Sequence record: PZ618369.1
Length of the DNA: 39,474 nucleotides
Source of the DNA: a phage
Direction: 5' to 3' (one strand)
Position numbers and translations under genes: made by a program. Of this stretch, positions 7,708-36,295 are shown piece after piece; position 1 is the first letter of the stretch, and each line of letters starts with the position of its first letter. The notes under the pieces are model-generated. The model searched no databases. It was not told the DNA's origin and worked only from the letters and a program-made list of their open reading frames with translations.

Positions 7708-8793
7708 ATGATAACTATTAAAACTAACCCGCACCGCGCTGTAGATTACTCTGAGTCTGGCGTTAAGAAGGCTCTGGAAGCTGCCGGGTCGCTGGAAGCT
7801 GAAGTGAAGTACGATGGTGTCCGGTTGAATCTTCTGGTCTTCCCTACTGGTGAGACTCAATGGTTGAGTCGTGAGTCTAAACCTCTCCCAGCTCTTGAGT
7901 GGCTGTCAGTCCTTACCAACATCGACAACATCGTTGATGACCAGCAAAAAGCTAGCGACTGGCGGTGGTTCCTTAAGCAGGCGGGCTACGAAGGCATGGG
8001 CCTGATGATTGATGGTGAGGTCATGGTTCCTGCAACCGACTTCAACACTTCCTCAGGTCTAGTCCGTACCATGTGGTCAGACACTAAGAACTACGCTTGG
8101 AATGGCAACCCAGATGCTGACATCGACACCAAGAAGAAGCATAAGGTCCCTTTCCATCTGGCAACCGACCACATCCGCGTGGTTGTCTACGGTATCGTTG
8201 ACCTTAACGTCATCAACGACCCGAAAGCCGAAGGTCCTATCCATAGCGTCACACGCCTGAAGGCCGAAGCTATCGTCCCTCTCCTCCAGAAATACTTCCC
8301 GGAAATCGACTGGGTTCTGTCTGAGTCACACACGGTCTATGACCTTGAGTCGCTCAACTCCCTGTACGAAGAGAAGCGTCTGGAAGGACACGAGGGTCTG
8401 GTAGTCAAGGACCCACTGGGTAAATACAAGCGTGGCAAGAAGTCAGGAATGTGGAAGATGAAGCCTGAGGAGACCATCGACGGGACCGTATGTGGCCTCG
8501 TGTGGGGGACTCCTGGTAAGGCCAACGAAGGCAAGGTCATTGGCTTTGAGGTACTGCTGGAGGACGGCATGGTAGTGAATGCGTGCGGACTGACTGAGGA
8601 GCAGAAGGATGAGTTCACCGCTTCCGTTCTAAACTGGCGTAAGGGGTTATGCTCAAGCACTATTTATGGAAACCCGTTTGCGGGTAATCAGGTGGAAGTC
8701 CTATTCATGGAGCGCTTCCCTGATGGCTCCCTTCGTCATCCCAGCTTCAAGTGCTGGCGTGGAACGGAAGACAATCCAACCGTTAAGAGCTAA
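7708..8793 (+). CDS. 1.3: ATP-dependent DNA ligase (361 aa)
   Basis: KYDGVR adenylation motif; EGHEGLVVKDP, KRGKKSGMWKMKPE and DGSLRHPSF match recalled T7 ligase. Confidence 0.95.
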   Translation: MITIKTNPHRAVDYSESGVKKALEAAGSLEAEVKYDGVRLNLLVFPTGETQWLSRESKPLPALEWLSVLTNIDNIVDDQQKASDWRWFLKQAGYEGMGLMIDGEVMVPATDFNTSSGLVRTMWSDTKNYAWNGNPDADIDTKKKHKVPFHLATDHIRVVVYGIVDLNVINDPKAEGPIHSVTRLKAEAIVPLLQKYFPEIDWVLSESHTVYDLESLNSLYEEKRLEGHEGLVVKDPLGKYKRGKKSGMWKMKPEETIDGTVCGLVWGTPGKANEGKVIGFEVLLEDGMVVNACGLTEEQKDEFTASVLNWRKGLCSSTIYGNPFAGNQVEVLFMERFPDGSLRHPSFKCWRGTEDNPTVKS

Positions 8794-8804
8794 CTAAACG
8801 TCAA

Positions 8805-8840
8805 CCCAGTGGTCTTCGGACTGCTGGGTTTCTTTGCGTT
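8805..8840 (+). terminator. intrinsic terminator (early terminator TE equivalent)
   Basis: CCCAGTGGTC-TTCG-GACTGCTGGG, a 10-bp stem with two G-U pairs and a UUCG loop, followed by TTTCTTTGCGTTT; located just after the ligase gene as TE is in T7. Confidence 0.7.
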
Positions 8841-8859
8841 TGGGGATCCAGCCTGACCC

Positions 8860-8878
8860 TAATTTATCACTATAGGAC
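8860..8878 (+). promoter_or_regulatory. phage RNAP promoter variant (TAATTTATCACTATAGGA)
   Basis: differs from consensus at two upstream positions. Confidence 0.55.
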
Positions 8879-8908
8879 AACCATAACTTCGACCTAAGGA
8901 GGCCGACC

Positions 8909-9169
8909 ATGTTTAAGAACTTAATGTTCAACCGTTATTCCAATACCTTCCACCTGTCCAACAACCCGTTCGCTTGCATTAAGCGTAACGAGAAGCTGGG
9001 CTACTTCGGGAAGGCCGTTAAGCTGTCACCTACAGTCTACGCTCTTATTACTCCCGGCAAAGCTGAAGAGGCTCGCCAGAAGCGTGAGACCAACGTACCT
9101 GTGGTCTACACTAAGTGGCCTCGAGTTCGTCTGTTCGTTGAGTTCGTGAAGGAGGTGGTCAATGATTAA
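8909..9169 (+). CDS. hypothetical protein at gene 1.6 position (86 aa)
   Basis: ORF track; synteny only. Confidence 0.6.
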   Translation: MFKNLMFNRYSNTFHLSNNPFACIKRNEKLGYFGKAVKLSPTVYALITPGKAEEARQKRETNVPVVYTKWPRVRLFVEFVKEVVND

Positions 9170-9693: not shown

Positions 9694-9848
9694 CTGAGGT
9701 TGAGAAGAAATACATCGTGGAGCTTGAGGGTCGAGTTCAGTCCTTCGAGGTTCCGGTGTACGCAAAGTCTCTTGAAGAGGCTACCCTGAAGTCCCAAGAG
9801 TATGAGGACGCTGGGTTTGTGGTCGGACGGATTCGTCCTGAGACCTAA
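9690..9848 (+). CDS. 2: gp2-like host RNA polymerase inhibitor
   Basis: [15 protein letters not shown]...GFVVGRIRP matches recalled T7 gp2 (HSFEVPIYAETLDEA...GFEVTRVRP); GTG start 8 nt after AAGGAG, alternative ATG at 9672. Confidence 0.7.
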
Positions 9849-9866
9849 ACTATCACTGTAGGGCAG
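9846..9866 (+). promoter_or_regulatory. phage RNAP promoter variant (TAAACTATCACTGTAGGG)
   Basis: A to G change at -3; phi2.5 position. Confidence 0.55.
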
Positions 9867-9905: not shown

Positions 9906-10604
9906 ATGGCTAAAGAGCAACTGAAGACTTTCACCACTCCGGTAGCTGGTATCGTTGAGCCTTACGCATGGCTAAACAAAGCAGACACCAAGTTTAACGA
10001 TCGTGGTGAGCACAAAGTCAACCTGACATTCGACCTGAGCAACCCGAAGGTCCGTAAGATGATTGATGTCTTACAGAAGATTCATGACGATGCGTATGCG
10101 AAAGCACTCGCAGACCACGAGAAGAACCCACCTCAGGTTCAGCGTGGCAAGAAGCCTATTGAACCACGAGAAGGCGACATGCCGTGGATTGAGAATGGTG
10201 ATGGTACTGTTACCCTGAAGTTTAAATGCTTTGCGTCTTACCTGAAGGATGGTAAGTCAGAGCCTATCGTATTACGGTTCTACGACACCGATGCTAAGTT
10301 AATCCGTGACGTCCCGAATATTGGTGCTGGCTCCAAACTGAAGGTCAAGTTTAAAGTCCTGCCGTTCAAGTGGAACGCTGCTACTGGTGCAAGCGTTAAG
10401 CTGCAGCTTGAGTCCTGCCTTCTGGTAGAGCTGAAGGAATGGAAAGGTGATGGTGCTGGTGGAGATGGTGGCTGGGGTGATGATGAAGACCTAGGCACTG
10501 GATACAAAGCGTCAACCGATGGTGACTTCGGTGACGATGACTTCGGTGACGATGGTTCCGAAGGCAGTGACGACTCCAACTCTGGTGGCGATTACGACTT
10601 CTAA
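9906..10604 (+). CDS. 2.5: single-stranded DNA-binding protein gp2.5 (232 aa)
   Basis: RGKKPIEPREGDMPW, GAGSKLKVKFKVLPFKWNAATGASVKLQLES and acidic C-terminus ending DF match recalled T7 gp2.5. Confidence 0.92.
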   Translation: MAKEQLKTFTTPVAGIVEPYAWLNKADTKFNDRGEHKVNLTFDLSNPKVRKMIDVLQKIHDDAYAKALADHEKNPPQVQRGKKPIEPREGDMPWIENGDGTVTLKFKCFASYLKDGKSEPIVLRFYDTDAKLIRDVPNIGAGSKLKVKFKVLPFKWNAATGASVKLQLESCLLVELKEWKGDGAGGDGGWGDDEDLGTGYKASTDGDFGDDDFGDDGSEGSDDSNSGGDYDF

Positions 10605-11056
10605 TGGCCCAATGGTCTGCAAAACGGGGGCACTCTGTGGGTGCCTACCGCTCTGGACTTGAAGCCAAGAACCAGCAGTGGCTGGAACAGAACGGCGTCA
10701 AAGCGGAGTACGAAAGCCATTATATCAACTATGTGATTCCGGCTTCCGACCACAAGTACACACCAGATTTTATCCTTCCTAACGGTATCATCGTGGAGAC
10801 CAAAGGTATCTTCGACAGCGATGACCGTAAGAAGCACCTTCTGGTACGAGAACAGCACCCAGAGTTAGACATCCGGTTCGTGTTCTCAAGTTCACGCTCC
10901 AAGCTATACAAAGGGTCCCCGACCACGTATGGCGCATGGTGCGAAAAGAACGGCTTTAAGTTTGCCGATAAGTTCATCCCGGTTGAGTGGCTGCGAGAGG
11001 CGACTGTACGTCTGCCTTCCGGTATCCTCATCCCCAAGAAAGGAGTTAAGAAATGA
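10604..11056 (+). CDS. 3: endonuclease I (Holliday junction resolvase)
   Basis: YTPDFILPNGIIVETKGIFDSDDRKKHLLVREQHPELDIRFVFSSSRSKLYKGSPTTYG closely matches recalled T7 gp3. Confidence 0.92.
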   Translation: MAQWSAKRGHSVGAYRSGLEAKNQQWLEQNGVKAEYESHYINYVIPASDHKYTPDFILPNGIIVETKGIFDSDDRKKHLLVREQHPELDIRFVFSSSRSKLYKGSPTTYGAWCEKNGFKFADKFIPVEWLREATVRLPSGILIPKKGVKK

Positions 11057-11505
11057 CTCGTAAAGCAATCATTGTCGACCTTACCAATGGCGGCGCTTAC
11101 ACTGATAACTTCAAGGAGGGCCAAGAGGTCTTCGTTAAGTTCTGCCGTAAGTCCCTATTCACACGAGATGGGGACCTGTGGCATGTGTCACATGACGGAG
11201 TTAAGTGGAGTGATACAATGTACGGTAAGCGCCTGAAGTTCGTGGACAGCCCTGCAAAACCTGAGGTAATCCTAGCTTCGAGCGTACAGCCTGTGACTGT
11301 GAAGCGTGAAGTCCTTACCATCGACAAGATTGGTGTAGGCCAGACGTTCATCGTCCACGGTAAACCTGAGGAAGTTTACGTTAAGATTAGCAACTCACAC
11401 GTCTTCAACCATAAGCGTCTCCAGATGCACACCACGGACGCACAACGCTTCACCCAGCACCTGAATCTGGTGGTCGTAGAATTGGTGGTGTACAATGGTA
11501 AGTAA
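11053..11505 (+). CDS. hypothetical protein (150 aa) inserted between genes 3 and 3.5
   Basis: ORF track; ATGA overlap with gene 3 and an 11-nt overlap with gene 3.5; no counterpart in T7 at this position. Confidence 0.6.
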   Translation: MTRKAIIVDLTNGGAYTDNFKEGQEVFVKFCRKSLFTRDGDLWHVSHDGVKWSDTMYGKRLKFVDSPAKPEVILASSVQPVTVKREVLTIDKIGVGQTFIVHGKPEEVYVKISNSHVFNHKRLQMHTTDAQRFTQHLNLVVVELVVYNGK

Positions 11506-11953
11506 GGTACAGTTCAACCCACGGTCCCGGACTGACGCTATCTTCGTTCACTGTTCGGCTACCAAGCCAGAGATGAACATCGGGGTAGAGACCATCCGTA
11601 TGTGGCACAAGCAGCAGGGCTGGCTGGACGTAGGCTACCACTTTATCATCAAGCGCGATGGTACTGTGGAAGAGGGTCGCCCGGTCAATGTCGTAGGGTC
11701 ACACGTTAAGGACTGGAACTCCAAGTCCGTAGGCGTCTGCCTTGTAGGTGGAATCAACGCTAAGGGTAAGTTTGAAGCTAACTTCACTCCAGCCCAGATG
11801 AACTCCCTGCGTAACAAGCTGGCTGACCTGAAGGCCCTGTATCCTCAGGCAGAAATCAAAGCACACCATGACGTAGCACCTAAGGCGTGTCCAAGTTTCG
11901 ACTTGCAACGCTGGCTGTCTACCAATGAACTGGTCACTTCCGACCATGGATAA
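11495..11953 (+). CDS. 3.5: N-acetylmuramoyl-L-alanine amidase (T7 lysozyme, RNAP inhibitor)
   Basis: TDAIFVHCSATKP...WLDVGYHFIIKRDGTVEEGR...HHDVAPKACPSFDL matches recalled T7 gp3.5. Confidence 0.95.
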   Translation: MVSKVQFNPRSRTDAIFVHCSATKPEMNIGVETIRMWHKQQGWLDVGYHFIIKRDGTVEEGRPVNVVGSHVKDWNSKSVGVCLVGGINAKGKFEANFTPAQMNSLRNKLADLKALYPQAEIKAHHDVAPKACPSFDLQRWLSTNELVTSDHG

Positions 11954-12038
11954 GATAGACTTTCTGCTTATCCTTCTGTTATCAGGAGCAATCACCTTCG
12001 TAGGATGGTGGTTCTTCCCTGAACACTTTGAACTTTAA
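11946..12038 (+). CDS. possible small membrane peptide (30 aa)
   Basis: hand translation MDKIDFLLILLLSGAITFVGWWFFPEHFEL; overlaps the end of gene 3.5; speculative. Confidence 0.25.
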   Translation: MDKIDFLLILLLSGAITFVGWWFFPEHFEL

Positions 12039-12052
12039 AGGAGAACAACTCA

Positions 12053-12268
12053 GTGATTAAACTTATTGAATTTCTTGGTCGTCTGGTGGTGCGTGGCTAT
12101 CGTCGTGCTGCGGTTATGGAACGAAAGGTAGCAGAGAAGGCTGCTGAAGGTGCGGCTGATGCTGCTGCTCTGGCTGACAAGCTGACCATCGAGTCACTGG
12201 AAGCTGGTATGAAGGCACGTCAAGCCGACACCAAAGCTGACCAGTTGGCTCAGTTCTTCAAAGCCTAA
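12053..12268 (+). CDS. hypothetical protein (71 aa, GTG start), Ala-rich C-terminal half
   Basis: ORF track; RBS AAGGAG upstream of GTG; stop lies inside the following promoter. Confidence 0.45.
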   Translation: MIKLIEFLGRLVVRGYRRAAVMERKVAEKAAEGAADAAALADKLTIESLEAGMKARQADTKADQLAQFFKA

Positions 12269-12285
12269 ACTATCACCTTAGGGAT
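12266..12285 (+). promoter_or_regulatory. phage RNAP promoter variant (TAAACTATCACCTTAGGGA)
   Basis: two changes at -4/-3; upstream of gene 4. Confidence 0.5.
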
Positions 12286-12333
12286 GGGACCATGAGTCCT
12301 GTCCCTTTGTTAGCATTTATGATTAAGGAGTGA

Positions 12334-14037
<1,704 letters not shown>

Positions 14038-14048
14038 GGAGGAATACA

Positions 14049-14213
14049 TTGCTAAGAAAACTTAAAGCTCGCTACCATCGGTTCATGTACAAATGGTGGA
14101 GCGATGAAGCAGCCTGCCTGTCTAACATTCTGGGAGACCAAAGGTTCGACTCTAAGGCATGGAAGAAAGCTAACCGGAAGTTTATGTATCACTTCTTGCG
14201 TACAGACTTCTAG
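14049..14213 (+). CDS. hypothetical small basic protein (gene 4.3-4.7 region), start uncertain
   Basis: in frame with ORF track 14016..14213; TTG 6 nt after AAGGAGG proposed as start. Confidence 0.35.
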   Translation: MLRKLKARYHRFMYKWWSDEAACLSNILGDQRFDSKAWKKANRKFMYHFLRTDF

Positions 14214-14216
14214 GTC

Positions 14217-14258
14217 TAGACTCAAGGTCATTCACATCGAGTGGCCTTTATGATTAGA
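14217..14258 (+). promoter_or_regulatory. conserved hairpin element, second copy (candidate RNase III site)
   Basis: TAGACTCAAGGTCATTCACATCGAGTGGCCTTTATGATTAGACT. Confidence 0.5.
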
Positions 14259-14277
14259 CTAAAGCGGAGGATTAACC

Positions 14278-16449
14278 ATGTTTGACCTTAAGAGTATCTG
14301 GGGTTCTGACATCGAGACCAACGGTCTCCTTGATACAGTCTCCCAGTTCCACTGTGGGGTCCTGATTAACGCCGAGTCGAATGAGACCCTTAAGTACGGG
14401 GTAGCTCCGATGGTCGGTATCGTCGGTGGCTTCAAAGAGTATGTTCATAAAGTGGAAGAGATTGCCGCATCACCTGATGGTATGCTTGTCTTCCATAACG
14501 GTATCAACTATGACGTCCCGGCTATAGACAAGCTGAAGCGTCTGTACTTTGGGAAACGTTTTAACTTCCCGAAACACAAGATGATTGATACCTTGGTGCT
14601 GGGCCGCTTGATGTATCCAAACATTAAGTTCTCAGACATAGGCGCGGTGAAAGCTGGTCATCTGTCACCTAATATGATGGGACGTCAGTCTCTTGAGGCT
14701 TGGGGTTATCGTCTCGGTGAGATGAAAGGTGAGTACAAACACGATTACGTTGCCAAGTGCAAGGCTGAAGGTATCGAATATAAGGCCGGGGACGAATGGC
14801 TGTTCCCGTCTCAGGAGATGCTGGACTATAACGTTCAAGACGTTGTGGTCACACTGGCGTTGTTCAAGAAGTTCCTGACTGACAAGTATTACTTCCAGTC
14901 TGAACAGTTCGCTTTCGACCAGATTTATGCGTTGCGTCTGGAACATGATGCTGCGTGGACCTGTGCGAAGATGGAACGTAACGGCTATCCGATGAACACC
15001 GAGATGGTCGAAGGCTTATATCGTGAACTCACCGTCAAACGTGCAGAGCTGCTGGACAAGCTGCGTTCGACTTTCGGTAGCTGGTACGCACCAAAGGGAG
15101 GCAAGGAGTTCTTCAAGCACCCCCGGACAGGCAAGGACCTTCCGAAGTATCCGAGAGTCGTGTATCCTAAGGTAGGGTCAGTATTCAAGAAGCCGAAGAA
15201 CAAAGCTCAACGCTTAGGTCTGGAGCCTTGCGAGTTCGACTCACGAGACATGATGGAGGGAGCACCGTTCACACCTATCACTTACGTTGAGTTCAATCCG
15301 GGGAGCGGAGACCACTTAGCGAAAGTCTTGATGGAGCGTGGCTGGGAGCCTGTAGACTTCACTGACACCGGGAAACCTGTAGTCGATGACGAGACGTTAG
15401 AACACGTTAAGCTACCAGACGCAGAGGCTCAGGCTTGCGTAGAGCTAGTTCGTGAGTATCTGGTAGTCCAGAAGCGCATCGGTCAGGCGGCTGAAGGTAA
15501 GAACGCATGGTTGAAACTTGTAGGTACAGACGGACGTATGCACGGTTCAATCAACCCATGCGGGGCAGTAACCGGACGTGCGACTCACAGTTCACCAAAC
15601 ATGGCTCAGGTCCCTGCTAACGGTGCTCCGTATGGTGAGATTTGCCGTGGAGCTTTCGGTGCAGCTTGGAACAAGACTAACGGTGAGCCAGACCCTTGGA
15701 TTCAGGTTGGTGTGGATGCTTCAGGTCTTGAGCTGCGCTGTCTGGGGAACAGAGCGGCTCCGTTTGATGGTGGAGACTATGCGAAGACTGTGGTCGAAGG
15801 TGACATCCACTGGGCCAACGCAGTAAACGCTGGGTTAGCACCTAACGTCCCACGCGATAAGTCTAACCATGACCATGATGCTTTCCGTAACAACGCTAAG
15901 ACGTTCATCTATGCGTTCCTGTATGGTGCAGGGGCCGCTAAGATTGGACTGATAGTTGGCGGTGGTAAGAAGGAAGGTGCTGCCCTGATGAAGAAATTCA
16001 TTGAGGGTACACCAGCTATCAAGGATCTGCGAGAGGCTGTGCAGAACACGCTCATCTCAGAGTCCAAATGGGTAGACGGTGAGAACATAGTGAAGTGGAA
16101 ACGTCGATGGCTGAAAGGTCTGGACGGTCGCCGCATTCACATCCGGTCGCCACACTCAGCACTTAACGCTCTACTTCAGGGTGATGGTGCGGTTGTCTGT
16201 AAGCACTGGATTGTCGAGACCGAGCGTATGCTCGAAGAGGCAGGGTATGTCCACGGCTGGGAAGGAGACTTCGCGTACATGGCTTGGGTTCACGATGAGC
16301 TACAGATTGCGTGTCGTACTCAGGAGATTGCCGAAGAAGTCGTCAAGATTGCTCAACTTGCTATGCGTAAGGTGGGTGAGTTCTATAACTTTAAATGTGT
16401 CCTTGATACCGAAGGTAAGATTGGACCAACGTGGAAGGAGTGTCACTAA
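14278..16449 (+). CDS. 5: DNA polymerase (723 aa)
   Basis: exo motif DIETNGL, YDVPA, pol motifs DASGLELR, KTFIYAFLYGAG and MAWVHDE; collinear with recalled T7 gp5. Confidence 0.97.
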   Translation: MFDLKSIWGSDIETNGLLDTVSQFHCGVLINAESNETLKYGVAPMVGIVGGFKEYVHKVEEIAASPDGMLVFHNGINYDVPAIDKLKRLYFGKRFNFPKHKMIDTLVLGRLMYPNIKFSDIGAVKAGHLSPNMMGRQSLEAWGYRLGEMKGEYKHDYVAKCKAEGIEYKAGDEWLFPSQEMLDYNVQDVVVTLALFKKFLTDKYYFQSEQFAFDQIYALRLEHDAAWTCAKMERNGYPMNTEMVEGLYRELTVKRAELLDKLRSTFGSWYAPKGGKEFFKHPRTGKDLPKYPRVVYPKVGSVFKKPKNKAQRLGLEPCEFDSRDMMEGAPFTPITYVEFNPGSGDHLAKVLMERGWEPVDFTDTGKPVVDDETLEHVKLPDAEAQACVELVREYLVVQKRIGQAAEGKNAWLKLVGTDGRMHGSINPCGAVTGRATHSSPNMAQVPANGAPYGEICRGAFGAAWNKTNGEPDPWIQVGVDASGLELRCLGNRAAPFDGGDYAKTVVEGDIHWANAVNAGLAPNVPRDKSNHDHDAFRNNAKTFIYAFLYGAGAAKIGLIVGGGKKEGAALMKKFIEGTPAIKDLREAVQNTLISESKWVDGENIVKWKRRWLKGLDGRRIHIRSPHSALNALLQGDGAVVCKHWIVETERMLEEAGYVHGWEGDFAYMAWVHDELQIACRTQEIAEEVVKIAQLAMRKVGEFYNFKCVLDTEGKIGPTWKECH

Positions 16450-16637
16450 TGGGCCATTATGACATCGCATACGAAGAGTTCGCTGAAGAAACACGCAGGC
16501 GTGAAGAGCTACGTCAGTCGCGGTGCGAACATCCAGATTGGGTACTTGTCTACTGCACGCAGGATGGCAAGCCAAAAGTAACTCAGTGCAGACTGTGTGG
16601 AAAGACCAATCACATTGAATCAAAAGGAGAAATCTAA
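16449..16637 (+). CDS. small Cys-containing protein (62 aa), possible zinc ribbon
   Basis: ATG overlaps gene 5 stop; AAGGAG RBS; contains CEH...C...CRLCGK. Confidence 0.45.
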   Translation: MGHYDIAYEEFAEETRRREELRQSRCEHPDWVLVYCTQDGKPKVTQCRLCGKTNHIESKGEI

Positions 16638-18270: not shown

Positions 18271-18398
18271 TTTACTGGGTCGGACTTCTGGCCCTTTACT
18301 GCATGTACAAGTGGTTTGGGTCAAACAACCGTCCTAAACACTGAGTCTAACCGATAGTCATATCCTATCAATCCAACAGTCATCCATAGGTGAAACAC

Positions 18399-18418
18399 TA
18401 AACTATCACTATAGGGAC
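18399..18418 (+). promoter_or_regulatory. phage RNAP promoter (phi6.5-type), TAAACTATCACTATAGGGA
   Basis: consensus match, +1 G near 18414. Confidence 0.8.
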
Positions 18419-18480
18419 TTTAGGACCTAAGATATGACTATAAGATAGACTTTAGTCTTAACTTAAAGAGGAGATTCAAG

Positions 18481-19653: not shown

Positions 19654-21222
19654 ATGGCTGAACGTGAAGGGTTCGCTGCTGAAGGAGCCAAAGCGGTCTA
19701 TGACCGACTGAAGAACGGTAGACAGCCATATGAGACACGCGCTCAGAACTGTGCTGCTGTCACTATCCCGTCACTGTTTCCTAAGGAGTCCGACAACTCG
19801 TCCACTGAGTACACAACTCCGTGGCAAGCTGTGGGCGCTCGCTGCTTGAACAACTTGGCTGCAAAGCTGATGTTGGCATTATTCCCTCAGTCACCGTGGA
19901 TGCGACTGACAGTATCCGAATATGAGGCCAAGACCTTGAGTCAGGACTCAGAGGCGGCTGCTCGTGTTGACGAAGGGCTGGCTATGGTCGAGCGTGTGTT
20001 GATGGCCTACATGGAGACTAACAGTTTCCGAGTCCCATTGTTCGAGGCGCTGAAGCAGCTTATCGTCTCAGGTAACTGCCTGCTCTACATCCCTCCACCA
20101 GAACAAGGAACATACAGTCCTATGCGAATGTACCGCTTAGTGTCATACGTTGTTCAACGTGATGCTTTCGGTAACATCTTACAGATTGTGACTCTCGACA
20201 AGGTAGCGTTTAGTGCTCTACCGGAAGACGTGAAGTCTCAACTAAACGCAGACGACTATGAGCCTGACACAGAGCTGGAAGTGTATACGCACATTTACCG
20301 TCAGGACGACGAGTATCTGCGCTACGAGGAAGTGGAAGGTATTGAGGTAGCAGGGACCGAGGGTTCTTACCCACTGACTGCATGTCCGTACATCCCAGTA
20401 CGAATGGTTCGACTGGATGGTGAAGACTATGGTCGTTCTTACTGCGAGGAGTATCTGGGAGACCTGAACTCGCTGGAGACGATTACAGAAGCTATCACCA
20501 AAATGGCTAAGGTAGCCTCCAAGGTGGTGGGCCTCGTTAACCCGAACGGTATCACGCAACCTCGTCGTCTGAATAAGGCGGCTACAGGTGAGTTCGTGGC
20601 TGGTCGAGTTGAGGACATCAACTTCCTGCAACTGACGAAGGGTCAGGACTTTACGATTGCCAAGTCGGTGGCTGACGCTATCGAGCAACGTTTAGGCTGG
20701 GCCTTCCTTCTTAATAGTGCTGTTCAGCGTAATGCCGAGCGTGTCACTGCTGAAGAGATTCGTTATGTTGCTGGCGAACTGGAGGCGACCTTAGGTGGCG
20801 TGTACTCGGTACAGTCACAAGAGCTTCAGTTGCCTATAGTCCGTGTGCTGATGAACCAGCTTCAGTCTGCTGGCATGATTCCAGACCTTCCGAAAGAAGC
20901 GGTAGAGCCTACGGTATCCACTGGTCTGGAAGCGTTAGGTCGTGGTCAGGACTTGGAGAAGCTAACTCAGGCGGTTAACATGATGACTGGTCTTCAGCCG
21001 CTATCTCAGGACCCTGACATCAACTTGCCGACCCTTAAGCTGCGACTCCTGAACGCTCTGGGTATCGACACAGCTGGCCTACTCCTTACGCAAGACGAGA
21101 AGATTCAGCGCATGGCTGAGCAGTCGTCTCAACAGGCAGTTGTCCAAGGTGCTAGTGCTGCTGGTGCCAACATGGGTGCTGCTGTAGGTCAGGGAGCTGG
21201 TGAGGACATGGCTCAAGCCTAA
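19654..21222 (+). CDS. 8: portal (head-to-tail connector) protein
   Basis: RLKNGRQPYETRAQNCA, YRLVSYVVQRDAFGN and VRMVRLDGEDYGRSY match recalled T7 gp8. Confidence 0.97.
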   Translation: MAEREGFAAEGAKAVYDRLKNGRQPYETRAQNCAAVTIPSLFPKESDNSSTEYTTPWQAVGARCLNNLAAKLMLALFPQSPWMRLTVSEYEAKTLSQDSEAAARVDEGLAMVERVLMAYMETNSFRVPLFEALKQLIVSGNCLLYIPPPEQGTYSPMRMYRLVSYVVQRDAFGNILQIVTLDKVAFSALPEDVKSQLNADDYEPDTELEVYTHIYRQDDEYLRYEEVEGIEVAGTEGSYPLTACPYIPVRMVRLDGEDYGRSYCEEYLGDLNSLETITEAITKMAKVASKVVGLVNPNGITQPRRLNKAATGEFVAGRVEDINFLQLTKGQDFTIAKSVADAIEQRLGWAFLLNSAVQRNAERVTAEEIRYVAGELEATLGGVYSVQSQELQLPIVRVLMNQLQSAGMIPDLPKEAVEPTVSTGLEALGRGQDLEKLTQAVNMMTGLQPLSQDPDINLPTLKLRLLNALGIDTAGLLLTQDEKIQRMAEQSSQQAVVQGASAAGANMGAAVGQGAGEDMAQA

Positions 21223-21238
21223 ACTATCACTATAGGAA
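21219..21238 (+). promoter_or_regulatory. phage RNAP promoter (phi9-type), TAAACTATCACTATAGGA
   Basis: consensus match; followed by a 12-bp-stem hairpin (AACAACACAACC ... GGTTGTTGTGTT) in the leader. Confidence 0.75.
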
Positions 21239-21330
21239 CAACACAACTTGAGTGAGTGAACGCATAGCCAGCCGTAATGGGAGGGCAGGTTGTTGTGTTT
21301 CCCTATTAACTACCAAAGGAGAATGACTCA

Positions 21331-22215
21331 ATGTCTCAATCAGTTTATGCCGAGTTCGGCGTTAGCTCTAATGCAATCACTGGTTCCGTTGAGGACCTGA
21401 ACGAACACCAGAAGTCTATGCTTGAACAGGACGTAGCTGTTCGTGATGGCGACGACGCTATTACCTTCAAGCAACTGGAAGCCGAAAACGAAGAGGCGAC
21501 CGAAGAAGACGAGAACGTCGAAGAGACTGAAGGTGAAGAAGACCACGAGTCAGATGACGAAGAGTCTGAGACAGATGGTGAGCAGCCTGAGTTCATCGAA
21601 CTAGGTGATGCACCAAAAGAGCTGACTGAAAGTGTCACCGCTCTGGATGAAAACGAAGCTGCATTCGACGACATGGTGTCTTCTGCTGTAGAAGCTGGCA
21701 AGGTCACTGCTGATGAAATTACCGCTATCAAGGCTGAATACGCCAAGGACGGTAAGCTGTCTGACGCATCCTACGCTAAGTTGCAGGAAGCAGGCTACAC
21801 CAAGCGTTTCGTAGATTCGTTTGTCCGTGGTCAGGAAGCTCTTGCTGAACAGTATGCTGCTGGTGTGGTTCGCTACGCTGGTGGTGCTGAACAGTTTAAC
21901 CGCATCCTGTCACACCTTGAGTCCAACGACCCGTCAACTCGTGAAGCACTGGAAGCTGCTATCGTTCGTAAGGACATTGCTACTACCAAAGCTCTGCTGA
22001 ATCTGGCTGGCAAGACTCTGGGTAAAGCTGTTGGTGTTAAACCTCAGCGTACCATCACCACTCAGGCTAAACCTGTGGTCACACCTAAGGCTCCTCAGGC
22101 CGAAGCATTCAGCTCTAAGGCTGACATGATTAAGGCTATGAGTGACCCGCGATACCTGCGCGACACTAAATACACGATGGAAGTTCGCGCTAAGGTAGCT
22201 GCCTCAAGCCTGTAG
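21331..22215 (+). CDS. 9: capsid assembly (scaffolding) protein
   Basis: very acidic 294-aa protein immediately upstream of the major capsid gene. Confidence 0.9.
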   Translation: MSQSVYAEFGVSSNAITGSVEDLNEHQKSMLEQDVAVRDGDDAITFKQLEAENEEATEEDENVEETEGEEDHESDDEESETDGEQPEFIELGDAPKELTESVTALDENEAAFDDMVSSAVEAGKVTADEITAIKAEYAKDGKLSDASYAKLQEAGYTKRFVDSFVRGQEALAEQYAAGVVRYAGGAEQFNRILSHLESNDPSTREALEAAIVRKDIATTKALLNLAGKTLGKAVGVKPQRTITTQAKPVVTPKAPQAEAFSSKADMIKAMSDPRYLRDTKYTMEVRAKVAASSL

Positions 22216-22218
22216 GAC

Positions 22219-22240
22219 TAAACTATCACTATAGGGAGAC
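22219..22240 (+). promoter_or_regulatory. phage RNAP promoter (phi10-type), full consensus TAAACTATCACTATAGGGAGA
   Basis: only copy with the full GGGAGA start; transcript begins GGGAGACC...GGTTTCCC, which can form a 5' hairpin as in T7 phi10. Confidence 0.85.
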
Positions 22241-22341
22241 CAAGAGACAGACTCAAGGTTTCCCTATTACTTCAGTCCATACGGATTGGGCATACAGTAA
22301 GTAATAAACTTTATCTTTCAATTGAATAGGAGAATTATCAT

Positions 22342-23385
22342 ATGGCAAACGTTCCGGGTCAGAAAATTGGTACAGACCAAGGTAAAGGCAAATCCAGCTC
22401 CGACGCTCTTGCGTTGTTCCTGAAGGTATTTGCTGGTGAAGTCCTGACCGCATTCACTCGCCGCTCTGTAACTGCTGACAAGCATATTGTCCGTACCATT
22501 CAGAACGGTAAGTCTGCTCAGTTCCCGGTCATGGGTCGCACCTCCGGTGTGTATCTGGCTCCGGGTGAGCGACTGTCCGATAAACGTAAAGGTATCAAAC
22601 ATACCGAGAAAGTGATTACCATTGATGGTCTGCTGACTGCCGATGTGATGATTTTCGACATTGAAGACGCGATGAACCACTATGACGTGGCTGGTGAGTA
22701 TTCCAACCAGTTGGGTGAAGCTCTGGCTATCGCTGCCGATGGTGCGGTTCTGGCTGAAATGGCTATCCTGTGTAACCTCCCATCCGCATCCAACGAGAAC
22801 ATCGCGGGTCTGGGTACCGCGTCCGTACTGGAAGTTGGTAAGAAAGCTGACCTCGACACACCAGCTAAACTGGGTGAGGCAATCATCGGTCAACTGACCA
22901 TTGCTCGTGCGAAGCTGACCTCCAACTACGTTCCTGCTGGCGACCGTTACTTCTACACCACGCCGGACAACTACTCTGCAATCCTCGCGGCTCTGATGCC
23001 GAACGCTGCTAACTATGCTGCGCTGATTGACCCAGAGACTGGTAACATCCGTAACGTTATGGGCTTCGTTGTTGTTGAAGTTCCGCATCTGGTTCAGGGC
23101 GGTGCTGGTGAGACTCGTGGTGAAGATGGTATCTCTATCGCTTCCGGTCAGAAACACGCATTCCCGGCGACTGCTGCTGGCGACGTTAAAGTTGCTATGG
23201 ATAACGTTGTGGGTCTGTTCTCTCACCGTTCTGCTGTGGGTACTGTGAAGCTGCGTGATTTGGCGCTGGAACGTGACCGTGACGTCGATGCTCAGGGTGA
23301 CCTGATTGTTGGTAAGTACGCTATGGGTCACGGTGGTCTTCGTCCTGAAGCGGCTGGCGCACTGGTTTTCAGCTCAGCGGCGTAA
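22342..23385 (+). CDS. 10A: major capsid protein 10A (347 aa)
   Basis: GKSAQFPVMGRT, KHTEKVITIDGLLTADVMIFDIEDAMNHYDV and AMGHGGLRPEAAGA match recalled T7 gp10A. Confidence 0.97.
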   Translation: MANVPGQKIGTDQGKGKSSSDALALFLKVFAGEVLTAFTRRSVTADKHIVRTIQNGKSAQFPVMGRTSGVYLAPGERLSDKRKGIKHTEKVITIDGLLTADVMIFDIEDAMNHYDVAGEYSNQLGEALAIAADGAVLAEMAILCNLPSASNENIAGLGTASVLEVGKKADLDTPAKLGEAIIGQLTIARAKLTSNYVPAGDRYFYTTPDNYSAILAALMPNAANYAALIDPETGNIRNVMGFVVVEVPHLVQGGAGETRGEDGISIASGQKHAFPATAAGDVKVAMDNVVGLFSHRSAVGTVKLRDLALERDRDVDAQGDLIVGKYAMGHGGLRPEAAGALVFSSAA

Positions 23386-23520: not shown

Positions 23521-23558
23521 AACCCCTTGGGTGCCTTCGGGTGCTTGAGGGGTTTTTT
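23521..23558 (+). terminator. intrinsic terminator (T-phi equivalent)
   Basis: CCCCTTGGGTGCC-TTCG-GGTGCTTGAGGGG followed by TTTTTT; a 13-bp stem with several G-U pairs and a UUCG loop. Confidence 0.8.
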
Positions 23559-23579
23559 GCTTAAAGTGAGAGGAGACTT

Positions 23580-26747: not shown

Positions 26748-26797
26748 AAGGGCCTATAGATTTACCTTAACTATCACTATAGGGACTATAGGCCCTT
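26748..26797. repeat. perfect 12-bp inverted repeat (AAGGGCCTATAG / CTATAGGCCCTT) bracketing the phi13 promoter
   Basis: read directly from sequence; 26-nt spacer contains the promoter. Confidence 0.6.
26767..26786 (+). promoter_or_regulatory. phage RNAP promoter (phi13-type), TTAACTATCACTATAGGGA
   Basis: consensus match, +1 G near 26782. Confidence 0.8.
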
Positions 26798-33100: not shown

Positions 33101-34045
33101 GGCTTCCTGTCTGACATCGTGGAGCATAGTCTGACTGGCAGTAAGCGTCGGTTCGATGACCGCTGGCTGAAGACCGCTGGTATCTCTGACGAGCAGTGGA
33201 AGGGCATTAAGTCCCTAATCCGTGAGTCAGTGACTCGTGGTCCAGACGGGAAGTACACCATCAAGGATAAGAAGGCGTTCAGTCAGGACCCAAGGGCTAT
33301 GGACTTATGGCGTATGGGTGACACCATCGCTGATGAAACGTTACTCCGGCCCCACAAGCTGTCTAACATGGACGCCAAGGCTTATGGTCCTCTCGCTAAG
33401 ACTGTCCTTCAGTTTAAGAACTTCGTCATCAAGTCCATAAACGGTAGAACCATGCGTACCTTCTATAACGCCACGAAGAACAACCGAGCGATTGACGCTG
33501 CACTATCGACCGTGATGTCTATGGGTCTGGCTGGTATCTACTACATGGCTCAGGCGCACGTCAAGGCTTATGCTATGCAGGATGGTCGAGACCGTGACTA
33601 CCTTAAGCAAGCTCTGGACCCGACGATGATTGGTTATGCGGCTCTGTCTCGTAGTTCACATCTGGGTGGCCCACTCGGGGTAGCTAACATTCTGGGTGGC
33701 ATCGCTGGGTATGAGGACACCAAGATGCTCCGTTCGTCTATCCTACCTCGTTCGCCTACAGAGAAGCCTGAACGTGCCATCTCGTATGGTGCAGCTACAA
33801 GTGGCCCTGTGATGAATGTTGTTGGTAACTTCTTGGAGCAGGTTCCAGCTTTTGGATATGCTGCTAACGTTGGTGCTTCGGCTTACAACTTGGCTGGCTA
33901 CCTCAAGGCTGATACTCGGGTAAACGAGAGAGACTACATGACCGGGATGTATAACACCTTCCGTGAACTGGTTCCGAACGACCCGATTACTCAGAAGTTG
34001 CTACTGGGAACGTTTGAGGAGCAAGGTATCCACATCAAGGACTAA
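30158..34045 (+). CDS. 16: internal virion protein D (ejection protein), 1295 aa, with a non-T7-type N-terminal domain
   Basis: from about residue 200 onward collinear with recalled T7 gp16 (STWFGFGAATEAE, VLPQYYGVITGGSPQNL, RLEARETARN, SPTGMQSGASGK, YGISHTEQF, NSFLEARNLFDSD, LVPNDPITQKLL); first ~190 aa not recognisable as the T7 lytic transglycosylase domain. Confidence 0.92.
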   Translation: MATRGIRNNNPGNIRVSKDQWEGMTGDDGAFVTFDSPESGVRALGKNLLSYGRQGYDSIEKIINRWAPPNENDTQAYIDSVVAATGIPATQSLDLSNPDTLSSLAQAISFHETGSRYNPEVYQKGVARALNGISPKTPPVSANVFDALTEGLKAKPKVALGGNLPTAAGLNIEGQAPEAPNESFGEMFYKATGETMQEREDRSTWFGFGAATEAEVKNSMVGVAIRAGQTEDSLDVIGDVFNPTRWNNHKWTRDELDQIRNAGVLPQYYGVITGGSPQNLTELINLALENQKLDQEKAKAGIGAQLAAGVIGAGVDPLTYVPIAGQVGKGGKLVNKMFTVAAQSGALAGVSEMARTSVAGGDAHVAEAILGGALFGGGMTAIADGLGRALGRNTNEFAGPATRLEARETARNVDGQDLSRLPIQEGEQTFSHQGVKFADVQNEPGSVRLEDGSILIGENPLNPKTRQVFDEVIEPERAAAGVNLGGLTEIGLKLLRSENPEIRGVAADLVRSPTGMQSGASGKIGTTASDVFERLRAVDHRFYNDIDDAVTEALKDPYFQTAFWRDSGAFRQDIYQRVSMAIEDGSGNLKAELTPGELKVYGLLKNQFDAKREMMENPAMFGRPDAKSIFPGSRFKGTYVPHVYSNQMKELYIKELGSPEALQEAIKKSWLTSYASRPEVKKRVDEALLEADPTLTADGLAAAVDKYANDKAYGISHTEQFERSSVMEENINGLVGLENNSFLEARNLFDSDMSIVLPNGQTFSVNNLREWDMDKIVPAYNRRVNGDIAIMAGTGKTTKDMKDLVETLMNKAGDDGKLKGEVSTLRDTLKILTGRARRDGADDAAFATVMRTMTDLSFFAKNAYMGVQNLTEIGGMLARGNVRALLHGVPMFRDLAFRNKKVGASEIKDLHNVIFGKELDDSIRPSKQDVIDRLRSYSDLGRGAATALGTAKYYTGELAVRSPFTKVLNGTTNYLLDAGRQGFLSDIVEHSLTGSKRRFDDRWLKTAGISDEQWKGIKSLIRESVTRGPDGKYTIKDKKAFSQDPRAMDLWRMGDTIADETLLRPHKLSNMDAKAYGPLAKTVLQFKNFVIKSINGRTMRTFYNATKNNRAIDAALSTVMSMGLAGIYYMAQAHVKAYAMQDGRDRDYLKQALDPTMIGYAALSRSSHLGGPLGVANILGGIAGYEDTKMLRSSILPRSPTEKPERAISYGAATSGPVMNVVGNFLEQVPAFGYAANVGASAYNLAGYLKADTRVNERDYMTGMYNTFRELVPNDPITQKLLLGTFEEQGIHIKD

Positions 34046-34062
34046 ACTATCACTATAGGAAA
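34043..34062 (+). promoter_or_regulatory. phage RNAP promoter (phi17-type), TAAACTATCACTATAGGA
   Basis: consensus match, +1 G near 34058; leader contains hairpin GGAGAC...GTCTCC. Confidence 0.75.
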
Positions 34063-34108
34063 CGGAGACGCTACCATAGGTCTCCATTTAAATCACAAAG
34101 GAGGCATA

Positions 34109-36295
34109 ATGTCCACGATTACACAATTCCCTGCAGGAAACACTCAGTACAGGATTGAGTTCGACTACCTATCCAGAACGTTTGTTGTTGTTACGCTGGT
34201 GAATAGCTCTAACCCTACCCTGAACCGTGTACTGGAAGTTGGTCGAGATTACCGATTCCTTAATCCAACGATGATTGAGATGTTGGTTGACCAATCAGGT
34301 TTCGACATCGTTCGTATTCACCGTCAGACTGGAACTGACTTAGTGGTAGACTTCAGAAATGGCTCAGTGTTGACAGCCAGTGACCTGACCAATGCAGAGC
34401 TTCAGGCTATCCATATTGCAGAAGAGGGCAGAGACCAAACGGTTGACTTAGCGAAGGAATATGCTGATGCTGCTGGTACCTCTGCCGGCAACGCTAAGGA
34501 TAGCGAGGACGAAGCACGACGAATCGCTGAGGATATCAAGGCATCTGGTCGAATTGGCTATATTACCCGTCGCTCCTTCGAGAAAGGCTTCAACGTTATA
34601 ACATGGAACGAGGTACTGCTATGGGAAGAGGATGGTGAGTATTACCGTTGGGATGGTACGCTTCCAAAGAACGTTCCTGCTGGTTCAACTCCTGAAACTT
34701 CCGGTGGGATTGGGGTAGGTGCGTGGGTTCTCGTAGGCGATGCTTCACTTCGTATCGCACTAGCTTCTGAAGTAGGGGCATCAATGGTGTCCCGTAACGG
34801 CTCACCCCTAGGCAGAATCATTCGTGCATCACTCTTCGAATACCTTACCGAATCAGATCAGCGAGCATTACTTACTACTTCTGGAGCAGTAGTTGCAGCG
34901 GATTATGCGTTAAAAGCAGCTATAGCTGCTGGAGTTATGGTCCTTGATATACCACGGAACCTAGGGATTATTGAACTTGGTAGAGATCCAGCGACGCTTC
35001 CATTGGGGTTCTCGCTTATAGGATGGGGCTGCCGTCGACCTTATACTGTATCAGATGACAGTAGCTTCCTTAATTGCGGGGTAGTTATCCGCGTAGCAGC
35101 TGGGGCAAGTTTTCCTTTTTATTCAACTGGTCGTCATGTGTTCCGGGATATTGTTTTTGACGGGCGGGATAAAACAACGTATCTTTTTTATTCCACAGAT
35201 AGGTATGCTGAGTTCAACGGTACTCGACTAGAGGGGTGCGGAATTTACCGTTTTGCTATTGGTATTGGTTGGAATAAGGGAGGATCAGCAAGATACATCA
35301 CAACAGTGAAAGCACACTTTTGTTCCCTATCTGGAAATGGGGACGCAGTTAAAAATTTAATAGACTCTATGATGATTGGTTGCACAATCAATGCCAATGA
35401 CCGAGGCGTAGCTCTTGTCGGCGGGGCAAATAGTAACTTTTTCGGAGGATGCCGGAACGAATGGAACGCTGGTGATAACTGGTATGCGCATGAATCAATA
35501 GAAAACCAGATTTCAGGTGAACTGTGCGACAGGGCTGGGCGAGGCGGGGTAGTTGCTGGCAAGGATTCGTCATGGATTGTAACCGGAGTTGTCGTCGCTC
35601 GCAGTGGTGCTAATCAACCAATGAATGATAACTACTCAGCAAACTTTGTTATTATTGATAACGGTAAAATCGTAATCTCTGGGGTGAGAACCAGAAACGG
35701 AGCTAACGAGTGGGGTCAGGGTGGGACAAATTCTCCATCGTTTAACGTATCGGTTCTCGGTTCTGGTAATGGGACACTCCTGGTATCTGGAAGTGATATG
35801 ACCGGTTTTGTTACTTCGGTAATTAACCAGAAGGCTCCTACATTAAATAAAGCTATAACCGGAAATCTCGGTATGGATGATGATGTAAATGTTGGAATGT
35901 CTCAGGTTATTAAAGGAAGACGGATTATTGGTTCACAGTCATCGGGTAGATTGCAAGACACTGTGGGAGCAACGTTATCATTCACTAAGCCCAATATTGC
36001 GCAAGATTTATATGCTACATACGTCACCAGAGCCATATTGATTGAGTGTAGAATTGGCAATACTGCACAAGGTGATTATATAAAAATACCTATAGGGGTA
36101 AGGCACGAAAACAATTTCTATCTTGATGTCATTACCAGTGGAATTGTCGCAAGCTCTGGAAGGATTGGTCTTTCAGGAACTGGGGTTACTGTTAGCTTAT
36201 CTATTGATAGTTCAACAGGTGACATCTCAGTTACGTTAACTAGCGTTGATGGGTTGGTGAGAGATGTTAATGTCTCTTTACTGCCATCAATTTAA
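34109..36295 (+). CDS. 17: tail fibre/tailspike: T7 gp17-like N-terminal adaptor fused to a beta-helix-like C-terminal domain (putative depolymerase)
   Basis: N-terminal ~150 aa resemble recalled T7 gp17 ([37 protein letters not shown]); the remainder is Gly/Asn/Ser/Val-rich with repetitive short strands and has visibly lower GC. Confidence 0.88.

Follow-up and report, generated by a model that had tools for sequence, protein, structure and literature searches.

Genome setting and promoter sites

The stretch of DNA analysed here, termed the window, comprises the 39,474 nucleotides of record PZ618369.1. Megablast and gene order identify it as a complete, circularly permuted T7-like genome of the genus Kayfunavirus, with a K1F-like gene order and a nucleotide identity above the level of about 70% expected within the genus. 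The best megablast matches are ST31, EcoDS1, SH3, vB_EcoP_F and many records named "Kayfunavirus", and the Kayfunavirus matches show 91-95% identity across 82-90% of 25 kb; no deposited record found by megablast is identical to the window or exceeds about 95% nucleotide identity to it. Position 1 of the window is the ATG of gene 19.5 (1-159), phiOR is situated at the extreme right end, and the terminal repeat is present in one copy, which aligns to 406-583. The EcoDS1 record, in contrast to the permuted window, begins at the physical left end.

A short element, TAAACTATCACTATAGGGA, is located at 22219-22237 ahead of the major capsid gene. This 19-mer has 10 matches in the window at three or fewer mismatches, against 0.01 expected from dinucleotide-preserving shuffles, and an eleventh site at 8860, TAATTTATCACTATAGGAC, differs from it by 4 mismatches. 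All eleven sites (11/11) are on the plus strand, and the 19-mers start exactly at 3602, 7129, 8860, 9846, 12266, 18399, 21220, 22219, 26767, 34043 and 39275. The sequence-only reading of this DNA had proposed eleven phage promoters, and all of them exist; eight of its coordinates are exact, whereas those for the sites at 3602, 21220 and 39275 were off by one base. The promoters, each given over 23 bp with the inferred +1 G, and two terminators are as follows.

3600-3622, plus strand: promoter before gene 1 (RNAP), ACTTAACTATCACTATAGGACTC, +1 at 3617; 75-nt 5' UTR from +1 to the RNAP ATG; identical to the annotated EcoDS1 promoter 2244-2266
7127-7149, plus strand: phi1.1-type promoter, CCTAAACTATCACTATAGGATTA, +1 at 7144, gene 1.1 downstream; overlaps the 3' end of the gp1.05-like ORF 6665-7144, 17 nt before ORF 7161-7400; matches EcoDS1 6034-6056
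8803-8840, plus strand: TE, early (host RNAP) terminator, a hairpin with a 12-bp stem and a trailing T run, downstream of the ligase gene
8858-8880, plus strand: phi1.6, a deviant promoter, CCTAATTTATCACTATAGGACAA, +1 at 8875, gene 1.6 downstream; between the early terminator and ORF 8909-9169
9844-9866, plus strand: phi2.5, CCTAAACTATCACTGTAGGGCAG, +1 at 9861; upstream of the gp2.5-like ORF 9906-10604; EcoDS1 phi2.5 at 8719-8741
12264-12286, plus strand: promoter before gene 4 (primase/helicase), CCTAAACTATCACCTTAGGGATG, +1 at 12281; identical to EcoDS1 11107-11129
18397-18419, plus strand: phi6.5, ACTAAACTATCACTATAGGGACT, +1 at 18414; sequence identical in EcoDS1 and K1F
21218-21240, plus strand: phi9, CCTAAACTATCACTATAGGAACA, +1 at 21235; overlaps the last part of gene 8, with gene 9 (21331-22215) downstream
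22217-22239, plus strand: phi10, the flagged site, ACTAAACTATCACTATAGGGAGA, +1 at 22234; upstream of the major capsid gene 22342-23385 (gene 10)
23534-23561, plus strand: T-phi-like terminator, a strong hairpin with a T run behind it, downstream of gene 10
26765-26787, plus strand: phi13, CCTTAACTATCACTATAGGGACT, +1 at 26782, gene 13 downstream; identical to EcoDS1 phi13
34041-34063, plus strand: phi17, ACTAAACTATCACTATAGGAAAC, +1 at 34058; overlaps the last part of gene 16, with the tail-spike gene 34109-36295 downstream
39273-39295, plus strand: phiOR, ACTTAACTATCACTATAGGGAAG, +1 at 39290; points over the window junction into gene 19.5; identical to EcoDS1 phiOR

The T-phi-like terminator is syntenic with the EcoDS1 terminator at 22122-22157, and TE with the TE of EcoDS1.

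A position-weight matrix (PWM) of 30 columns, from -22 to +8, was built from the eleven window sites. The sites themselves score 31.7-41.2 bits, compared with 14.0 for the next-best window position and 17.5 for the highest value in 200 shuffled genomes. A scan of the whole window with this matrix, as the sequence-only reading had suggested, recovered the eleven sites and no twelfth promoter; since the next-best score falls below the shuffle maximum, the set of eleven is taken as complete. That next-best position, with a +1 at 18443, was rejected as an extra promoter on its 14.0 bits, although it is conserved in K1F and EcoDS1. A structured site downstream of phi6.5 was likewise rejected, as its RNA folds no better than shuffles (z = 0.11).

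The matrix is rich in information between -16 and +2, which makes the 23-bp element of T7-group promoters, -17 to +6, the conserved unit. Columns -16, -15, -13, -10 to -5, -2, -1, +1 and +2 are invariant among the eleven sites. The core CACTATAGG, which had been described as common to all sites, is exact in nine of the eleven, while 9846 carries CACTGTAGG and 12266 carries CACCTTAGG. The phi10 promoter is the sole window site with a T7-like GGGAGA initiation region; the 156-bp region around it (22190-22345) is at least 99% identical in 39 phage records, and 11 of the 15 records listed match it at 100%. Each site either occupies a short gap between genes or runs into the final codons of the gene before it, and the next plus-strand ORF follows at 17-108 nt. 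T7 and T3 possess equivalents of the promoters 1.1, 1.6, 2.5, 6.5, 9, 10, 13, 17 and OR. The sites show the sequence features of T7-group promoters: a repeated element of ~23 bp with the core and a +1 G, on the coding strand and at gene boundaries. The resulting map of eleven sites, their +1 positions and two terminators is useful for annotating and engineering the window phage, and the promoter finding confirms that the genome is a typical Kayfunavirus.

That the repeats serve another purpose, for instance as signals for recombination, packaging or replication, has next to no likelihood: short dispersed direct repeats would be in keeping with such a role, but the strict strand bias, the location upstream of genes, the synteny with experimentally mapped T7 and T3 promoters, the initiation core held in common with T7 and the biochemical proof for an identical sequence in Ro45lw (PMC12272871) all speak against it.

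Promoter register relative to T7 and T3

The consensus sequences of T7 and T3 were derived from annotated promoters and placed in the same register as the window sites, with the first G as +1.

T7 consensus, -17 to +6: TAATACGACTCACTATAGGGAGA
T3 consensus, -17 to +6: AATTAACCCTCACTAAAGGGAGA
Window consensus, -17 to +6: (C/A)CT(A/T)AACTATCACTATAGG(G/A)...

The three phages are alike in the 23-bp element, the core CACTA(T/A)AGG, the +1 G and the class II/class III layout. The bases from -12 to -8 read ACTAT in the window, CGACT in T7 and ACCCT in T3. The sequence-only reading had correctly noted ACTAT for this segment, but the ACGAC that it compared from T7 occupies -13 to -9. ACTAT is present in ten of the eleven window sites, the exception being phi1.6 with TTTAT. 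A second difference lies at -17 to -14, where the window promoters have (C/A)CT(A/T) and those of T7 have TAAT.

PWM cross-scoring cleanly separates the window, T7 and T3 promoter classes. On their own model the window sites reach 34.3 bits, but the T7 and T3 models give them -13.6 and 0.1, respectively, and the T7 sites score -8.2 bits on the window model. These values support the proposed specificity distinct from T7 and T3, and the proposal of a self-consistent polymerase-promoter pair is likewise supported. T3 carries an unused T7 promoter. A PWM scan of the window revealed no T7-type or T3-type promoters, with best scores of 2.0 and 13.6 bits, respectively, and the 13.6-bit match to the T3 model, discarded as a candidate, is itself a K1F-type site.

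The window has 11 promoters, compared with 17 in T7 and 14 in T3; unlike T7 and T3, it has a promoter before gene 1 and lacks phiOL. We also note three peculiarities of the window genome, namely the phi1.6 variant, an arginine at RNAP position 773 and the promoter upstream of gene 1.

RNA polymerase and its specificity elements

The polymerase and the two regions relevant to promoter recognition are encoded as follows.

3692-6373, plus strand: gene 1, single-subunit RNAP of 893 aa, from a full-length alignment to T7 RNAP (1aro/1cez, E=0)
3965-4000, plus strand: region equivalent to the AT-rich recognition loop of T7 (T7 93-101), diverged and adjoining an 11-residue insertion
5936-6031, plus strand: specificity loop, residues 749-780 (T7 739-770), containing R756, N758, S764, N766, Q768 and V771

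The window RNAP is 97.6% identical to K1F gp1, 63.7% to the T7 enzyme and 63.6% to that of T3. It differs by 21 amino acids from K1F, by 20 from EcoDS1 and by 56 of 893 from Ro45lw, a phage of the same genus, Kayfunavirus. The nucleotide identity of the RNAP gene to the closest Kayfunavirus records listed, among which K1F does not occur, is about 93-94%. The catalytic residues are kept, with D547, K641, Y649, H794 and D822 of the window corresponding to D537, K631, Y639, H784 and D812 of T7.

In T7 RNAP, N748 reads promoter positions -11/-10, and the AT-rich recognition loop, from structural knowledge of T7, reads -17 to -13. Alignment of the specificity hairpin, T7 YKKPIQTRLNLMFLGQFRLQPTINTNKDSEIDAH against window YRKKDTTRLNLMFLGSFNLQPTVNRGTKKELDKH, reveals three substitutions, Q754 to S764, R756 to N766 and I761 to V771, and confirms the expectation that the loop differs from that of T7. 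R746, N748 and Q758 of T7 are retained as R756, N758 and Q768; together with R756, these are the T7 residues that form hydrogen bonds with promoter bases (PMC11880802). The three substituted residues (S/N/V) and the three retained ones (R/N/Q) make up the combination of the K1F class, and the hairpin is identical to that of K1F and EcoDS1 over T7 739-762. The sequence-only reading had located the difference in the peptide LQPTVNRGTKKELDKHKQESG, which does correspond to window residues 767-787 (nt 5990-6052), just as the T7 peptide set beside it corresponds to T7 residues 757-777. As the determinant of specificity, this segment holds in part: V771 lies inside it, but most of it is C-terminal to the base-reading residues, and S764 and N766 lie outside.

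The asparagine at window position 758 (T7 N748) is unchanged, yet the bases at -11/-10 are C/T instead of the G/A of T7; the R756N change must therefore act beyond -9. The read-out of the window promoters is not fully explained by the loop substitutions, and we infer, for the K1F class, which residue reads which base. The diverged N-terminal region fits the different sequence at -17 to -13 and may, by analogy with T7, have a role in reading it, including the conserved C-16/T-15. A sequence search of solved structures found no RNAP-promoter complex of the K1F class.

Relatives and the published K1F specificity class

The same promoters are found in close relatives. The 2008 GenBank record of EcoDS1 (EU734172) annotates eleven phage promoters that correspond one-to-one to the window sites and include phi, phi1.6, phi2.5, phi6.5, phi9, phi13, phi17 and phiOR. 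The 23-mers of EcoDS1 and the window are identical or nearly so, several of them over all 23 bp, with small differences at -17/-12 of two promoters. A scan of K1F (NC_007456) with the window PWM revealed the same eleven sites at syntenic positions, mostly with identical 23-mers; the phi1.6 promoter of K1F reads AAGCTAT where that of the window reads AATTTAT. K1F gp1 has the same specificity hairpin through T7 position 761. The tail spikes differ, that of the window having 728 aa and gene 17 of K1F having 3,195 nt.

Beyond single genomes, the 18-mer CTWAACTATCACTATAGG occurs in several copies each on about 25 contigs of ~39-40 kb in the public viral-contig collection IMG/VR, and 146 distinct site contexts from IMG/VR yield the same consensus, nearly all on Kayfunavirus-like contigs of ~39-40 kb. 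Positions -16, -15, -10 to -5, -1, +1 and +2 are invariant across the 146 sites. A Kayfunavirus genome paper of 2026 gives the promoter consensus as the same CTWAACTATCACTATAGG.

The class itself, defined by ACTAT at -12 to -8 (PMC11880802, Table 2; PMC3458549), has been put to use in engineered form. Temme et al. (2012, NAR) exchanged the T7 hairpin from Q744 to I761 for that of the K1F subfamily and replaced -12 to -7 of the T7 promoter by the subfamily consensus (PMC3458549). The resulting T7(K1F) gave 17-fold induction on its cognate promoter, was reported to be orthogonal to T7, T3 and N4-type pairs, and was then applied to the control of a pigment pathway (PMC3458549). The variant is described as "754S, 756N, 761V" with the cognate promoter ACTAT, and the orthogonality of a four-member set containing it is rated 8-fold (PMC11880802, Table 2 for the variant). 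Three loop substitutions are thus enough to redirect T7 RNAP to ACTAT, and the redirected enzyme discriminates against T7 and T3 promoters (PMC3458549, PMC11880802). Segall-Shapiro et al. (2014, MSB) turned T7(K1F) into the K1FR sigma fragment. The details of K1F promoters and loop used in these comparisons come from the EcoDS1 annotation, the PWM scan of K1F and Table 2 of PMC11880802.

T7(K1F) and its promoter PK1F have the same S/N/V loop changes and the same ACTAT at -12 to -8 as the window. The pair is nevertheless a chimera, which combines the K1F elements with the T7 scaffold, the T7 sequence at -17 to -13 (TAATA) and the T7 N-terminal AT-rich loop, in contrast to the native window promoters, which have (C/A)CT(A/T)A at -17 to -13.

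A native enzyme of the genus has also been studied. Takatsuki et al. (2025, J Biol Chem) purified the Ro45lw RNAP, determined ACTTAACTATCACTATAGGGA as the minimal promoter and identified G as the transcript start by 5'-end sequencing (PMC12272871). The phiOR promoter of the window is identical to this minimal promoter from -17 to +4, and a single difference, at -17, separates phi13 from the tested Ro45lw promoter ACTTAACTATCACTATAGGGACT. The Ro45lw RNAP differs from that of the window by M760L, R773K and T775S in or near the loop and by L96S. By analogy with the Ro45lw enzyme on an identical promoter, transcripts in the window phage would start at the predicted +1.

Assignment of the window promoters and competing readings

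Taken with the annotation and biochemistry of its relatives, the evidence leaves little room for doubt that the eleven sites are the complete promoter set of the gene 1 RNAP of a Kayfunavirus with K1F-class specificity. The RNAP-promoter pair is distinct from those of T7 and T3 but already known. Discrimination against T7 and T3 promoters is supported in silico for the window sites and experimentally for the T7(K1F) graft, and would by analogy apply to the native pair.

One competing reading is that the window RNAP, while still of the K1F class, has a slightly altered or loosened specificity, brought about by R773 in the loop extension and by K92/L96 close to the AT-rich loop, with the TT of phi1.6 as its sign. 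It draws on the differences K92P and R773K relative to K1F and EcoDS1 and L96S relative to Ro45lw, and on the phi1.6 variant, which is essentially unique: among the 146 related IMG/VR sites, T never occurs at -12 and occurs once at -11. However, the other ten window promoters match those of phages with K773 exactly or almost exactly, and R773, which is K in K1F, EcoDS1 and Ro45lw, lies outside T7 744-761, the grafted segment that is sufficient for the transfer of specificity. The 66-aa loop region including R773 is identical in fifteen phage records and 95-99% identical in 185 more, and T7 likewise has a single deviant class II promoter. We regard a shift of this kind as improbable. The phi1.6 promoter may be weak or inactive, given its TT at -12/-11.

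Still less probable is the proposal of the sequence-only reading that the pair represents a new RNAP specificity, lacking any characterised phage representative and hence adding to the orthogonal expression tools. In its binding half the promoter is indeed unlike those of T7 and T3, the RNAP shares only 63.7% identity with the T7 enzyme, and no deposited phage lies above the megablast limit of about 95% given earlier. The presence of this consensus in the characterised phages K1F, EcoDS1 and Ro45lw, which the sequence-only reading had itself named as grounds for calling it known, refutes novelty: the same 23-mers occupy the same 11 places in K1F and EcoDS1 and are annotated in the latter, the window loop carries the substitutions of the K1F graft already in the literature, Ro45lw provides a characterised native enzyme and promoter (PMC12272871), the Kayfunavirus consensus is in print, and the 66-aa loop region is widespread as described above. 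The specificity is already available as a tool in the form of the T7(K1F)/PK1F graft, the K1FR fragment and the native Ro45lw RNAP.

Proposed transcription programme

For a Kayfunavirus genome with a K1F-class promoter set, an early-to-late programme can be proposed, and the use of the promoters in the window phage and their relative strengths would be expected by analogy with related phages. Host RNAP would transcribe the early region up to the terminator at ~8803-8840, from which gp1 would be made. The gp1 enzyme would bind the 23-bp elements as duplex DNA over -17 to -5 and melt about -4 to +2, with the first G of TATA|GG as the start. Rightward transcripts for the replication genes would arise from the promoters before genes 1, 1.1, 1.6, 2.5 and 4, and those for the virion and packaging genes from promoters 6.5, 9, 10, 13, 17 and OR. 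The promoter consists of two parts, an initiation half, CACTATAGG, common to T7, and a binding half, (C/A)CT(A/T)AACTAT, of the K1F specificity class; the latter goes with the S/N/V hairpin, in which R746, N748 and Q758 are kept, and with the diverged N-terminal AT-rich-loop region.

K1F-type promoters in host chromosomes

A scan of bacterial genomes, one per species, revealed 24 matches to the promoter, ten of them in Enterobacteriaceae; these include E. coli, Shigella (2), Citrobacter (2), Enterobacter, Leclercia, Buttiauxella and Pseudocitrobacter. In the chromosomes the K1F-type promoters come as pairs, spaced about 430-660 bp and followed downstream by a conserved gene set, and belong to integrative elements of ~6.5 kb that carry exact K1F-type promoters in Enterobacteriaceae chromosomes. 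We also note that three promoter-bearing IMG/VR contigs are not Kayfunavirus genomes.

The element of E. coli LR-64-1 (locus L125) extends from about 10062 to 16622 and splits ynfE. Its features are as follows.

Tyrosine integrase of 524 aa
K1F-type promoters at 12061 and 12490
Five genes whose products have 122, 171, 166, 163 and 329 aa, the one of ~163 aa being regarded as a partner protein
Unannotated ORF of ~79 aa, similar to the T7 gp6.7/7.3 family and regarded as a virion protein of this type

The ~79-aa ORF matches phrog_1320 at 1.8e-11, and its match to PF11653 is weak. Of 5,426 complete E. coli genomes, 310 carry the module of the element, chromosomal in every case, and almost all of its matches listed are annotated as hypothetical proteins.

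The 329-aa protein has no match in Pfam, PHROGs, PADLOC or a PDB sequence search, nor by HHalign against gp10 of the window; a profile search identified 64 relatives. AlphaFold gave a model with pLDDT 84.7 from a 34-sequence alignment, whereas 13 close homologues gave an unusable model (35.6). All Foldseek matches of the former are HK97-fold capsid proteins and encapsulins, 211 of them in the PDB at E ≤ 0.001, and the top BFVD matches are named "major capsid protein". The predicted structure suggests that the 329-aa protein is an HK97-fold capsid protein that belongs to no Pfam or PHROG family. Distant relatives of it, at 34-42% identity, are found in similar integrase-led mini-elements, whose promoters are T7-like but of other types (…CACACTATAGRG, AAACCCCGACTATAGAGAG) and which share the end motif.

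The element and the phage also resemble each other at the genome end. A hairpin of 28 nt is common to the element and to window 39404-39431, which lies between phiOR and gene 19.5, with 27 of 28 positions identical. A 120-nt region of the element resembles the right-end/terminal-repeat junction of the phage, with CCATCTAATAC...CCCCCATAGCC in the element against CCACATCTCACAG...CCCCATAGGCC in the phage, whose genome ends in TCTCACAG. The 120-nt region appears to be a mimic of the Kayfunavirus genome left end.

The most economical reading would be that the elements are capsid-forming mini-satellites or phage-triggered islands, activated through the RNAP of an infecting virulent T7-like phage and packaged with its machinery. 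We put this forward tentatively, as a serious possibility that falls a little short of being probable. No description of satellites of T7-like phages like these was found in the literature searched, and one may exist elsewhere. If this reading is true, the RNAP-promoter pair is also an interface exploited by a parasite; satellites of virulent T7-like phages would have a bearing on phage therapy with Kayfunavirus or K1F-type phages and on helper sensing. The chromosomal elements may matter more than the promoter finding itself.

The non-enterobacterial matches to the 18-mer, in Flavobacteriaceae and metagenome-assembled genomes, have TCTAAACTATCACTATAGGT in common and were judged coincidental. 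At L104, the sole non-enterobacterial locus examined, the match lies inside a conserved ORF and has no Rfam match. Logan contigs of ~6.5 kb, considered as free copies of the element, turned out to be chromosome fragments with ynf genes attached.

Chromosomal element with K1F-type promoters

The ynfE gene of E. coli LR-64-1 (NZ_AP027588.1) is interrupted by an integrative element of ~6.5 kb, which occupies about 10062-16622 of L125, a chromosomal locus matched in the genome scans. The following features of the element were recorded.

L125, 12061 and 12490: two exact K1F-type phage-RNAP promoters
Gene for a tyrosine integrase
Five genes annotated as hypothetical proteins
ORF that is gp6.7/7.3-like and carries no annotation
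Further scanned loci with the element: L042, L069, L101, L103, L109, L111, L116, L117, L119, L123 and L124

The 329-aa protein of the element is predicted to adopt the HK97 capsid fold (pLDDT 84.7), and its Foldseek matches are capsids or encapsulins without exception. Among complete E. coli genomes, 310 of the 5,426 contain the module, which also extends to several further enterobacterial genera; a literature search gave no description of it. In its overall appearance, the element looks like a mini-satellite of Kayfunavirus.

The sequence ATCTGTTTTT at L125 16184 is similar to ATCTGTT, the class II pause/termination signal of T7 RNAP. It is situated 3' of the last ORF of the element, about 260 nt ahead of a mimic of the phage genome end. 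In the phage, the terminal repeat precedes the CJ site, whereas the element shows the reverse order, with ATCTGTTTTT before the genome-end mimic. Because of this opposite order, ATCTGTTTTT may only terminate the transcript of the element's operon.

Distant relatives of the element were observed at two other loci, L128 (CP142904.1; 2370-5570 and 9369) and L130 (5746, 9458 and 10304). Their capsid protein is 34-42% identical to that of the element, and the integrase-led layout is common to both. The relatives carry T7-like promoter types that differ from the K1F type (…CACACTATAGRG and AAACCCCGACTATAGAGAG), while the genome-end-like motif CCATC..ATA…CCCCCATAGCC is kept. The different promoters together with the retained end motif suggest that subfamilies of the element are paired with different helper-phage RNAP specificities.

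The 18-nt promoter sequence used for the scans also matched Flavobacteriaceae loci (L102, L104, L106, L107, L110, L114, L115, L118, L120 and L122), where it belongs to a conserved sequence, TCTAAACTATCACTATAGGT(A/T)GC, of Maribacter, Cellulophaga and related genomes. At L104, the one locus looked at, the match lies within a coding ORF (3056-3388) on the opposite strand, and the sequence has no match in Rfam. These matches to conserved coding sequence were judged to be coincidental.

Genome ends and the hairpin near phiOR

As assembled, the window is circularly permuted, and its position 1 falls at the ATG of gene 19.5 (1-159). The terminal repeat is present in a single copy at about 406-583, with its left end TCTCACAGTT at 406 and a CJ-like ATCTGT at its right boundary (about 585-590). 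A phiOL-type promoter is absent from the left end, and phiOR, at the right edge (39273-39474), directs transcription across the junction.

Between phiOR and gene 19.5 we note a conserved 28-nt hairpin, GGAGGGTGATATTAATCATAATCCCTCC (39404-39431; DNA fold z = -2.0). It is present in the related phages K1F and EcoDS1 with compensated stem changes (AGGAGG…CCTCC), and the copy in the chromosomal element of E. coli and Shigella is identical to that of the window at 27 of 28 positions. The hairpin may belong to the maturation or packaging signals.

Individual promoters and the RNAP gene

The promoter phi1.6 (8858-8880) has TT at -12/-11 (CCTAATTTATCAC…), where K1F and EcoDS1 have AAGCTAT. Among 146 related IMG/VR sites, T occurs at -12 in none and at -11 in one; phi1.6 of the window is most likely a class II promoter of reduced strength. 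At 18426-18448, 29 bp 3' of phi6.5, lies CCTAAGATATGACTATAAGATAG, a degenerate sequence that resembles a promoter and is kept in K1F and EcoDS1. Its promoter score of 14 bits is below the shuffle maximum, and the leader RNA there folds no better than shuffles (z = 0.11).

The promoter at 3600-3622 is located directly 5' of the RNAP gene, leaving a leader of 75 nt, which implies positive autoregulation of this gene. A phage promoter ahead of gene 1 is likewise found in EcoDS1 and K1F, in contrast to T7 and T3. RefSeq re-annotation labels T7-type single-subunit RNAPs (NC_007456, NC_011042, NC_047829 and others) as "N4-like RNA polymerase"; the label is misleading, since the proteins align with T7 RNAP over the full length.
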